Positions 40,598 to 41,878 of a DNA stretch of 64,000 nucleotides are shown piece after piece. Each line of letters starts with the position of its first letter. The stretch's first letter is position 1. Made by a program: the position numbers and the translations under genes. This DNA comes from Acutalibacteraceae bacterium. GTDB taxonomy: Bacteria > Bacillota > Clostridia > Oscillospirales > Acutalibacteraceae. The notes below the pieces were generated by a model, which was not told where the DNA came from, did not search any database, and saw only the letters and a program-made list of their open reading frames with translations. The stretch covers positions 5,921 to 69,920 of the forward strand of contig JAZMZY010000091.1 in assembly GCA_045586265.1 (NCBI GenBank). The letters run 5' to 3'.

Positions 40598-40804
40598 TCA
40601 GACTGTTTTTCTCGCCTCAATAAATAAATCGAGATCTTCCACTATATAGTTGTCACCGGTAGTATGCAATGCTTCAAAGCAAGAGAATATATATTCGCAA
40701 ACTCGATACTGCATAAAAAGCTCAACAACCTGTTTACCGCTTAATTTTTTTGCTGATTTATATGTTTCAATACAATGCACCAAAAAATTGCCTGCATTAC
40801 TCAT
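40598..40804 (-). CDS. DUF3791-like small protein (cassette gene 4)
   Basis: 68 aa, FLVHCIETYKSAKKLSGKQVVELFMQYRVCEYIFSCFEALHTTGDNYIVEDLDLFI. The pattern matches my recollection of DUF3791. Confidence 0.65.
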   Translation of the reverse strand: MSNAGNFLVHCIETYKSAKKLSGKQVVELFMQYRVCEYIFSCFEALHTTGDNYIVEDLDLFIEARKTV

Positions 40805-40806
40805 AC

Positions 40807-41049
40807 CTATACCTCCTCCGGAAATGAAATTTTCCCTATTTTTATTTCTTCATCAAACATATTGAACAAGGTTAATTCACTGAAATGCCATAATTTTGTA
40901 TCCTCGTTTTCCAATAATTCATATGTTTTTGAAGTATAAAATTTTATTGACGCGCTAATTTCATCCAAATCATAATTTACTGCAATCAAATGAATAATAC
41001 GAGGAACCAATATCTTCAAAATTGCTTCAAACTTTCTCTGTTCCATCAA
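40807..41049 (-). CDS. DUF3791-like small protein (cassette gene 3)
   Basis: 80 aa helical protein that overlaps the upstream gene by 4 nt and ends 2 nt before the next start. Confidence 0.6.
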   Translation of the reverse strand: MMEQRKFEAILKILVPRIIHLIAVNYDLDEISASIKFYTSKTYELLENEDTKLWHFSELTLFNMFDEEIKIGKISFPEEV

Positions 41050-41534
41050 AACGCCCCCTCTGTTAATACGCCTTTAAAAGAAAGGTAACCTAAAGCCTTT
41101 TCGCTGGCAAAAACCAGTTGATTATACAGTTTTTTAATTCTTAAAGCTTCTAAGGTCTGCTCCTTTGTAAGCACACCTGCGGAATAAAGCGTAAAAGTTG
41201 TATAAACATCATCATCTGCAACAGGGCCATAAATTAAGTCATATTTTTCTCCGTTATAAACTCCGGCTCTGTTTTCAGAAACAAAATCCAGGCAAGCCTC
41301 ATTTGCTTCTTCAAACCGCAAAACATCGCAAGCTTCAAAAGCGGTTTCATCAAGCTCATAAACACTTACGGTTTCAACACCGGTTTTCTTTCTTTTAAAA
41401 ACTTTCTGTGCAAATGCAACAGCCTGGGTTTTATTTGTGGTTGTATAAAAACCGAAACCCAAATCAAGAAAACGGTTTTGTGGTATTAATTTCGGCTCTG
41501 ATACCTCAACATTACTACCGTGGTATAGAATCAT
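41046..41534 (-). CDS. DUF3990-like protein (cassette gene 2)
   Basis: 162 aa, MILYHGSNVEVSEPKLIPQNRFLDLGFGFYTTTNKTQA... It overlaps the upstream gene by 4 nt. Confidence 0.7.
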   Translation of the reverse strand: MILYHGSNVEVSEPKLIPQNRFLDLGFGFYTTTNKTQAVAFAQKVFKRKKTGVETVSVYELDETAFEACDVLRFEEANEACLDFVSENRAGVYNGEKYDLIYGPVADDDVYTTFTLYSAGVLTKEQTLEALRIKKLYNQLVFASEKALGYLSFKGVLTEGAF

Positions 41535-41833
41535 ATTTCTGCCCCCAACATTTTATTTGCTATTTTTAATTCTTTCTTCAAGGATTTAAGCATTATTTCA
41601 ATATGTTTTCGTCTTTGTAAATATTCTTTAGTCTCCTCCAAATCACCTTGAGGAATATATTTTGACACAATCTTTTTTCCCTCTCGATATTTGAGATAGC
41701 AATACACTTTATTTCCACTTTTCTTTTCTGATATTGTTCCTTTAGGAAGCGTTTTGAGTTCGTCAGAATATTTTTCTATCATATATTCTATTCTTGCTTT
41801 TTCAGAATCTACCATTGAAATTATAAAGCTCAT
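41531..41833 (-). CDS. Hypothetical small coiled-coil protein (cassette gene 1)
   Basis: Start moved to MSFIISMVDSEK (ATG at 41833) because GGTGGTGA precedes it and a promoter lies inside the longer ORF-track extension. Confidence 0.6.
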   Translation of the reverse strand: MSFIISMVDSEKARIEYMIEKYSDELKTLPKGTISEKKSGNKVYCYLKYREGKKIVSKYIPQGDLEETKEYLQRRKHIEIMLKSLKKELKIANKMLGAEI

Positions 41834-41849
41834 ATTATTCACCACCCTT

Positions 41850-41878
41850 ATTATACACAACATTTCACCAAAAATCAA
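41850..41878 (-). promoter_or_regulatory. sigma-A-type promoter for the four-gene cassette
   Basis: Minus strand reads TTGATT (41878-41873), 17 nt, TATAAT (41855-41850), 16 nt upstream of the ATG. Confidence 0.6.

Follow-up and report, generated by a model that had tools for sequence, protein, structure and literature searches.

A DUF3990-DUF3791 gene cassette of an Acutalibacteraceae bacterium as a candidate toxin-antitoxin-type module with a predicted ADP-ribosyltransferase fold

Introduction

What could a compact cassette of four small genes, set among housekeeping genes, do for the bacterium that carries it? The question is raised by contig JAZMZY010000091.1 of an Acutalibacteraceae bacterium (Bacillota, Clostridia; GenBank assembly GCA_045586265.1), of which a stretch of 64,000 nucleotides (positions 5,921 to 69,920 of the forward strand; hereafter the window) was analysed. 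On its minus strand, between positions 40598 and 41881, the listing of open reading frames (ORFs) and the sequence showed four co-oriented ORFs flanked by two strong hairpins, here named g1 to g4 in the order of transcription. The initial annotation, made from the letters alone, had read them as one transcription unit in which an enzyme with motifs of the His-Tyr kind of ADP-ribosyltransferase (ART) is followed by two small proteins, as in toxin-antitoxin, immunity or defence modules. The explanation developed here, which we regard as moderately probable, is that the cassette is a horizontally mobile, autoregulated ART module of the toxin-antitoxin type.

The families concerned have been catalogued before. 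DUF3990 is already included in the Pfam ART clan (PMC7955679) and has been noted, with function unknown, as a variable C-terminal toxin domain of type VI secretion system Rhs proteins in Serratia and Enterobacter (PMC4524185, PMC10763514, PMC12165300); in Rhs effectors with a DUF3990 tip, an immunity gene comes next (PMC4524185, PMC10763514). The PADLOC models named PDC describe 145 untested phage-defence candidates, picked via homologues embedded in BREX, DISARM and type I restriction-modification (R-M) operons (bioRxiv 10.1101/2024.01.29.577857), and one of these, PDC-M13, was among the most frequent systems of a rumen survey, with 3,324 loci (PMC13356809).

Results

Family assignment of the cassette proteins

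The g2 protein matched Pfam DUF3990 (PF13151) over its full length, as had been proposed from its letters (154.9 bits against a gathering score of 32.2, E = 1.6e-45; residues 1-153 aligned to model positions 1-152 of 152), and g4 matched DUF3791 (PF12668; 75.8 bits, gathering score 25, E = 2.7e-21). Of the two small proteins described earlier as DUF3791-like, g4 was thus correctly placed; g3 was not, as it had no Pfam match at E up to 1, DUF3791 included, and its profile showed no relation to that of g4 (hhalign, E = 0.49). A weak match of a Clostridium g3 homologue to DUF3791 (E = 0.023) and weak matches of both g3 and g4 to the PADLOC model PDLC04442 offer faint hints of a kinship between g3 and DUF3791. 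Neither BLASTP nor hhalign supported g3 and g4 as paralogues. The g1 protein scored 15.2 bits against DUF6788 (PF20586), below the gathering score of 27.2; the 10 homologues scanned all scored between 13.9 and 24.0 bits, always over the C-terminal half of the model, and the precomputed table of the protein database gives PF20586 for all 120 g1 homologues. On these scores g1 appears to be at best a divergent DUF6788 relative, not a member. The NCBIfam scan of the cassette proteins returned no match, and PHROGs a single weak match of unknown function.

As adjacent, co-oriented genes, g2, g3 and g4 matched all three component models of PADLOC PDC-M13 (PDC-M13A, 5e-70; PDC-M13B, 4.4e-29; PDC-M13C, 2.9e-34, respectively), and g1 had no PADLOC match. 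At E up to 1, no PADLOC family beyond PDC-M13, PDC-M10 and PDC-M42 was reported for g2. The locus is therefore a member of DUF3990, DUF3791 and PDC-M13, and not a new kind of entity.

Predicted fold and conserved residues of g2

The AlphaFold 2 (AF2) model of g2, built on 40 homologues, reached a mean predicted local distance difference test score (pLDDT) of 86.6 and a predicted template modelling score (pTM) of 0.80. Nearly all of the top 25 Foldseek matches of this model in the PDB were ART-fold proteins, in agreement with the fold that the motifs had led the initial annotation to propose. The best was the RES toxin of the Pseudomonas putida Xre-RES complex (E = 9e-4; template modelling (TM) scores 0.49/0.54), and the others included the VPA0770 toxin, PARP1, PARP2 and PARP4, exotoxin A, diphtheria toxin and Arr. 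Against models of viral proteins, the best match was a 202-aa phage protein (27% identity, TM 0.74), equal in length to the DUF3990 homologue gp30 of Geobacillus virus E3, the identity of the two not being confirmed. Beyond the family itself, the best match in the viral library was a protein with an ART-PolyVal-like domain (E = 1e-6). The model thus places g2 within the ART fold.

All three motifs noted in the initial annotation were present (ILYHGSN, residues 2-8; GFGFYTT, 26-32; IYGPVADDD, 101-109), although the first two are separated by 17 residues and not by 20. In order to evaluate their conservation, the DUF3990 profile, which gathered 3,869 clusters at 50% identity (E at most 1e-3), was sampled for 86 diverse members, 31-56% identical to g2. 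F29, Y30, D99 and G103 were invariant among them, and H5, G6, D24-F25-G26, G28, T32, Q37, A38, W81, R89, A106, D108 and Q139 were conserved in at least 90%. The His and Tyr motifs are thus the most conserved positions of the family, and H5 and Y30 sit on the first two strands of the g2 model. Sub-threshold Pfam matches among the 86 members were to ART-PolyVal in 36 cases and to PARP in 4, with at most two for each unrelated family. The score of g2 itself against ART-PolyVal (PF18760; 14.4 bits, E = 0.069) did not reach the gathering score (31.2 bits), and the best E-value among the 86 relatives was 2.8e-4; by these scores g2 is a relative of ART-PolyVal, and not a member.

Linkage of g2, g3 and g4 in close relatives

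Each GTDB species was scanned in one genome, which yielded 326 relatives, and the counts for close loci given here refer to the 80 best, found in Lachnospiraceae, Oscillospiraceae, Erysipelotrichales and other Bacillota, mostly Clostridia. The g3 gene directly followed g2 in all 80, and g4 was present in 77, the three gaps corresponding to two contig ends and one deletion. In contrast, g1 was found in 45 of the 80, and elsewhere non-coding DNA or remnants preceded g2. The linkage of the enzyme gene with two small genes, a layout typical of toxin-antitoxin and defence modules, therefore extends well beyond the window and also to distant phyla (see below), while the four-gene unit proposed initially is reduced to a three-gene core with an optional g1. 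The flanking genes were unrelated between loci (the commonest neighbour family occurred at 9 of the 80, among 682 flanking ORFs), so that the cassette moves as a unit. A proximity to defence islands, also considered at the outset, found little support: PADLOC and Pfam scans of the 145 nearest neighbours at these loci returned mostly housekeeping and helix-turn-helix (HTH) genes, and a few integrase or defence genes.

Some irregular copies were also observed. At the closest relative, an uncultured Eubacteriales metagenome-assembled genome with 90% identity (L001:4169-6010 and 6001-6459), the DUF3990 gene lacks its first six codons, that of the conserved His among them, and the end of a 613-aa ORF without Pfam match stands in their place; this copy represents either a pseudogene truncated at the 5' end or a junction in the assembly. 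Decay of single components was also seen, with g2 split in two in L108:3001-3477, g3 split in L079:2306-2538 and g4 reduced by deletion to its first codons in L077:~945.

Permuted and fused arrangements on plasmids and in viruses

The three components recur in distant relatives, at 24-60% identity, in three other arrangements (Table 1). In the type I R-M system of Moraxella osloensis, all four junctions from hsdM to hsdS are 4-nt overlaps, and the five genes may thus be translationally coupled. The rep gene adjoins the cassette on the 7.6-kb and on a 17.5-kb plasmid, and on pBF9343 the cassette has a zeta toxin gene as neighbour. In the 149-aa protein of Bacteroidales, the N-terminal half is similar to g3 (E = 1e-6 by BLASTP, 3e-12 by hidden Markov model (HMM)) and the C-terminal half to g4 (2e-11 and 4e-16, respectively). 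The permuted gene order, together with this fusion, argues strongly that g3 and g4 work together with g2, probably in the manner of a single bipartite protein. For the fused partner, the AF2 model is all-helical (local pLDDT 87, pTM 0.53). As HTH-type antitoxins g3 and g4 found no support, the model of the fused partner being without a fold match.

The gene was present in 84 plasmid records, and 102 relatives were found on IMG/VR contigs; among 80 IMG/VR loci examined, both partner genes were adjacent in 57 and DUF3990 was solo in 19. The latter comprise gp30 of Geobacillus virus E3 (L083:2971-3579) and 18 other loci, in which no neighbouring g3 or DUF3791 gene was detectable; weak matches of gp30 itself were to ART-PolyVal at E = 0.041 and to the C domain of diphtheria toxin at E = 0.14. 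Many viral or prophage loci (L112-L121, L141-L156) carry the order g4-g2-g3 plus a downstream gene of 80-120 aa that is g3- or DUF3791-like, a four-gene variant that suggests duplication of partner genes. On both Bacteroidales plasmids (L081:3502-4615, L082:4502-4762), a conserved 86-aa gene of no known family follows DUF3990, and on pBF9343 it shares a 14-nt overlap with the zeta-toxin family gene next in line; the 86-aa protein may be part of the DUF3990 module or the antitoxin of the zeta toxin.

Promoter, inverted repeat and g1

The near-consensus promoter reported for the cassette (TTGATT-17-TATAAT, 41878-41850) was present. Its match to the consensus alone carries no significance, as 3.5 kb contain 10 sites of this kind and shuffled sequence would give 11.2, but the same pair of -35 and -10 boxes, at a like distance from the g1 start, was found in about 40 homologous loci in which the sequence further upstream is unrelated, and this conserved architecture validates the promoter. 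The consensus shared upstream of g1 reads tT.CACAACA-N5-TTGATATT-N8-TGTTGTG-TATAAT. In the homologous loci, 16-21 nt lie between the -10 box and the g1 start, and in the window a Shine-Dalgarno-like GGGTGGTG begins 3 nt past the box (41840-41855). As the -10 box of the window ends 16 nt before the ATG of g1, a very short transcript leader is expected.

The two 7-mers of this consensus are reverse complements that bracket the -35 box. Arms complementary at 6 or more of 7 positions were found in 29 of the 38 loci that contain g1 and in 2 of the 19 without it, compared with about 6% in shuffled controls. Moreover, three independent compensatory variants, changed on both arms and with perfect complementarity, were observed (CACAACG/CGTTGTG in L013, TCCAACA/TGTTGGA in L044 and TACAACA/TGTTGTA in L066). 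On the strength of this covariation, the CACAACA/TGTTGTG inverted repeat is probably an operator. The g1 protein is basic (isoelectric point (pI) 9.4) and g2, g3 and g4 are acidic; Pfam detected no HTH in g1, g3 or g4. We infer that g1 may be an autorepressor that would bind the repeat.

Layout and surroundings of the cassette in the window

The four genes form one unit with overlapping or near-abutting junctions, as described initially (Table 1). The g1/g2 junction is an ATGA overlap, and 2 nt separate g3 from g4, just upstream of which lies GGAGGAGG. The 4-nt overlap reported between g2 and g3 holds for the TTG start of g3 (80 aa) and is reduced to 1 nt with the ATG one codon on (79 aa). Likewise, the ATG of g1 yields 100 aa, and a GTG further upstream, at 41881, yields 116 aa.

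The hairpin of the upstream gene of a BspA-type leucine-rich repeat (LRR) protein was matched by none of 200 shuffles and is followed by a U-rich tail, UAUACUUUUAUUU; as the initial annotation stated, this terminator insulates the cassette against read-through. At the other end, a bidirectional terminator had been placed at 40537-40580. The hairpin is there (on the minus strand -20.7 kcal/mol, z = -5.7), with a good T-tail on the plus strand only; on the strand of the cassette, where the tail is AAAUUUAUC, the U-tail is weak, and the bidirectional action is thus supported in part. The gene that shares it, at 40092-40517, encodes a 141-aa DUF4234 membrane-type protein and converges on the cassette, and no link between the two was seen at other loci.

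Table 1. Positions of the cassette genes and control elements in the window, and arrangements of the three-gene core in distant relatives.
Feature	Position	Strand	Description
g1	41531..41833	-	100-aa basic protein, pI 9.4, DUF6788-like; optional accessory gene, candidate autorepressor
g2	41046..41534	-	162-aa DUF3990 protein, predicted ART fold, putative toxin/effector; conserved H5, Y30, D99, D108, Q139
g3	40807..41049	-	80-aa acidic helical protein, no Pfam family; probable first half of bipartite partner
g4	40598..40804	-	68-aa DUF3791 protein; probable second half of bipartite partner
Left arm ACACAAC of inverted repeat	41885..41891	-	Candidate operator half-site; consensus CACAACA
-35 box TTGATT	41873..41878	-	TTGATA conserved in about 40 homologous loci
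Right arm TGTTGTG	41856..41862	-	Abuts -10 box
-10 box TATAAT	41850..41855	-	16 nt upstream of g1 ATG
Terminator hairpin of upstream BspA-type LRR gene	41914..41954	-	-22.6 kcal/mol, z = -7.45
Hairpin common to cassette and convergent DUF4234 gene	40537..40576	.	18-bp stem; cassette end
g2-g3-g4 between hsdM and hsdS	Moraxella osloensis plasmid NZ_CP068110.1, L084:3448-7112		4-nt overlaps
g4-g2-g3	Clostridium botulinum and C. tetani plasmids		Adjoining rep
149-aa fused g3+g4 protein encoded ahead of g2	Bacteroidales plasmids, including pBF9343 and a 7.6-kb plasmid		

The G+C content of the cassette is 33%, compared with 38-41% in its flanks. Its neighbours are valS, a folC-like Mur ligase gene, a gene for a major facilitator superfamily (MFS) transporter and the DUF4234 gene on one side, and the genes for the LRR protein, rpsI, rplM and a D-Ala-D-Ala carboxypeptidase on the other. 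With such housekeeping genes around it, the cassette looks like a small insertion and not like part of a prophage or defence island; a prophage or integrative-element context was rejected on the same grounds, as no phage or plasmid genes lie nearby in the window. No second copy of any cassette gene was found within the window. The Rfam scan of the window gave two matches, both tRNAs far from the cassette; these are two adjacent tRNA genes on the plus strand (5810-5975).

Discussion

Proposed mechanism and comparison with known systems

In the proposed toxin-antitoxin-type module, g2 would be a small ART-fold enzyme of the His-Tyr-[acidic] kind that uses NAD+ to modify or deplete an essential component of the cell. 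The products of g3 and g4, two different all-helical proteins, would form one bipartite partner, bind g2 and hold it inactive, and might also sense the trigger, while g1 would repress the operon via the inverted repeat around the -35 box. Under this scheme g2 would be toxic and neutralised by g3 and g4, and the cassette could be of selective value by stabilising the DNA that carries it, by abortive infection on phage attack, or by both.

Among catalogued systems, PDC-M13 corresponds most directly: g2, g3 and g4 match its components A, B and C, with order and strand preserved, and the Moraxella relative inside a type I R-M operon exemplifies the guilt-by-embedding criterion by which the PDC systems were chosen (Payne et al., bioRxiv 10.1101/2024.01.29.577857). 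PDC-M13 is a candidate system, so that membership says nothing on function, and it has three genes, to which the window adds the upstream DUF6788-like gene and the conserved operator-like repeat. CmdTAC, an mRNA ADP-ribosyltransferase toxin-antitoxin-chaperone defence system (PMC11618068), is likewise a tripartite operon; its small His-Tyr-[Glu/Asp/Gln] ART toxin of the diphtheria-toxin kind and its small helical neutraliser would have their counterparts in g2 and the helical partner proteins. The third component of CmdTAC is a SecB-like chaperone, however, and neither Pfam nor PADLOC gave a SecB- or CmdC-like match for g1, g3 or g4; here both partners are small and helical, are fused in Bacteroidales and look bipartite, as opposed to an antitoxin plus a chaperone.

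The systems Xre-RES, MbcTA and ParST, with ART-fold toxins and directly binding antitoxins, resemble the cassette in their compact overlapping operons, the RES toxin being the best PDB fold match of g2 and VPA0770 also being listed. Their toxins are marked by the Arg-Glu-Ser (RES) signature and the antitoxins by Xre HTH or DUF2384-type domains, whereas the signature of the cassette is His-Tyr, no HTH was detected in g1, g3 or g4, and there are two partner genes instead of one. In DarTG, a His-Tyr-Glu-type ART toxin is found in a defence or toxin-antitoxin operon and the macrodomain of DarG reverses the modification; no macrodomain match was found in the cassette with Pfam. The DUF3990 tips of Serratia Rhs5 and Enterobacter RhsA share the Pfam domain and a small cognate gene next to it, but are fused to a secreted Rhs carrier directed against neighbouring cells, unlike g2, which is free-standing and cytoplasmic. 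ART-PolyVal, the nearest family by structure and by weak sequence signal, differs as a domain of very large multi-domain polyvalent proteins of phages and conjugative elements, g2 being a stand-alone gene with partners. By analogy, the cassette would work most like the ART toxin systems CmdTAC, Xre-RES and DarTG, but without SecB chaperone, Xre HTH or macrodomain.

Points against the proposed module and rival explanations

Several observations weigh against the proposed module. The structural matches of g2 are modest, with TM scores of about 0.5 and a single PDB match below E = 1e-3, and searches of PDB sequences with g2 or the 86-member profile returned no ART, the matches being at chance level (an enterotoxin, an aminopeptidase). 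A profile alignment to diphtheria toxin (1dtp_A) places H5 on H21 and Y30 on Y54, yet it is weak (E = 0.013, probability 3%), and an equally scoring alignment to exotoxin A puts GFYTT on the non-catalytic PGFYRTS. Such short-motif profile alignments are not reliable and, given the hit on a non-catalytic GFY, they were not used for the third catalytic residue. For that position D99, D108 and Q139 are all candidates and none is singled out. In PARP, diphtheria toxin and exotoxin A, the catalytic Glu lies at the start of the corresponding strand, and in g2 it is D99 that immediately precedes model strand 100-106. The initial annotation had suggested the ADDD stretch, within which D108 alone is conserved; this was not established, and D99 would be an equally good or better candidate, as would Q139. 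That g2 is a catalytically inert ART-fold binding or scaffold module, with the cassette working via some other activity, would agree with this ambiguity and with the lack of a sequence-level match to any solved ART. Nevertheless, the NAD-contacting His and Tyr positions are conserved over more than 3,800 clusters (50% identity), as are D99, D108, Q139 and R89. Such conservation is typical of an active site and not of decay, and we consider an inert g2 very improbable.

Other points concern the partners and the setting. The antitoxin role proposed for g3 and g4 derives from context alone; the fused partner had no Foldseek match among solved structures (best E = 1.1), and as g2, g3 and g4 are all acidic there is no electrostatic hint of pairing. 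The 19 viral loci with solo DUF3990 imply that the enzyme is in some cases too harmless to require a partner. A few loci without g1 keep the repeat (e.g. L007), so that g1 need not be what binds it, and the neighbourhood of the 80 close loci held little defence content, a count that has no baseline and from which no enrichment is claimed. The literature search found no paper testing any member experimentally, and the PDC systems remain candidates. In this respect the earlier statement that the families lack an assigned function stands; their novelty had been overestimated, as the ART clan listing, the Rhs toxin domain and PDC-M13 all pre-exist.

Two further explanations leave g2 active but give it another role. 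The cassette could be an offensive or counter-defence module of mobile elements, in which the ART, on entry of a phage or plasmid, modifies host or defence proteins, an action also proposed for the ART domains in polyvalent proteins of phages; the small proteins would then serve as adaptors, as chaperones or in timing. The closest structural relatives of g2 beyond its family are of the ART-PolyVal kind, to which the sub-threshold matches of the 36 members also point. A cyanophage pre-ejectosome protein among the PDB matches, the IMG/VR relatives with their solo copies, including gp30, and the plasmid records fit this explanation as well. It accords less with the cassette of the window, which lies alone among housekeeping genes without phage or plasmid genes nearby and has its own promoter with a candidate operator repeat; in addition, the Moraxella copy inside a type I R-M operon fits host defence better, and Rhs-borne DUF3990 domains are antibacterial toxins with immunity genes. 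We therefore consider an offensive module unlikely. We give even less credence to g2 as a benign modifier of small molecules or nucleic acids, either Arr-like (acting on rifamycin) or Tpt1/KptA-like (removing RNA 2'-phosphates), with the small proteins as accessories. Arr uses a His-Tyr-Asp pattern, its structures rank 16-18 among the Foldseek matches, and at 162 aa g2 is near the size of small ARTs such as Arr (chains of 138-145 residues); the solo copies and the housekeeping neighbours in the window would also suit an enzyme of this kind. The Arr matches are weak, however (E = 0.3-0.4, TM 0.23-0.31), an obligate link to two tiny non-enzymatic proteins that are permuted and fused is atypical of resistance or RNA-repair enzymes, and the use as Rhs toxin tip, the plasmid rep neighbours and the residence in an R-M operon point to conflict systems.

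Implications

In relation to what had been catalogued, the new elements are the evidence for a single partner made up of g3 and g4, the permutations of gene order, and the optional gene of DUF6788-like type with its operator-like repeat. It is possible, if still doubtful, that the triad represents a widespread and functionally distinct ART conflict system. Its free-standing His-Tyr-Asp-type ART would then act on a target new for bacterial ARTs and be restrained by a helical partner, heteromeric or fused and without solved fold relative, that would also sense phage or stress; in the Clostridia branch, the DUF6788-like protein would be a new type of small DNA-binding repressor acting on CACAACA/TGTTGTG. 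The functional unit is g2+g3+g4, with g3 and g4 to be treated as one partner; the residues of interest in g2 are H5, Y30, D99 and D108, and g1 with the inverted repeat constitutes a candidate regulator-operator pair. The module is abundant, with more than 3,800 DUF3990 clusters at 50% identity, and pBF9343 is one of the common Bacteroides plasmids on which it occurs. If g2 is indeed an active ART toxin, the few ART-based immunity and addiction systems (DarTG, CmdTAC, RES toxins) would gain a new target or mechanism, and an accessory module that is very common in anaerobes of the gut and rumen would be explained.

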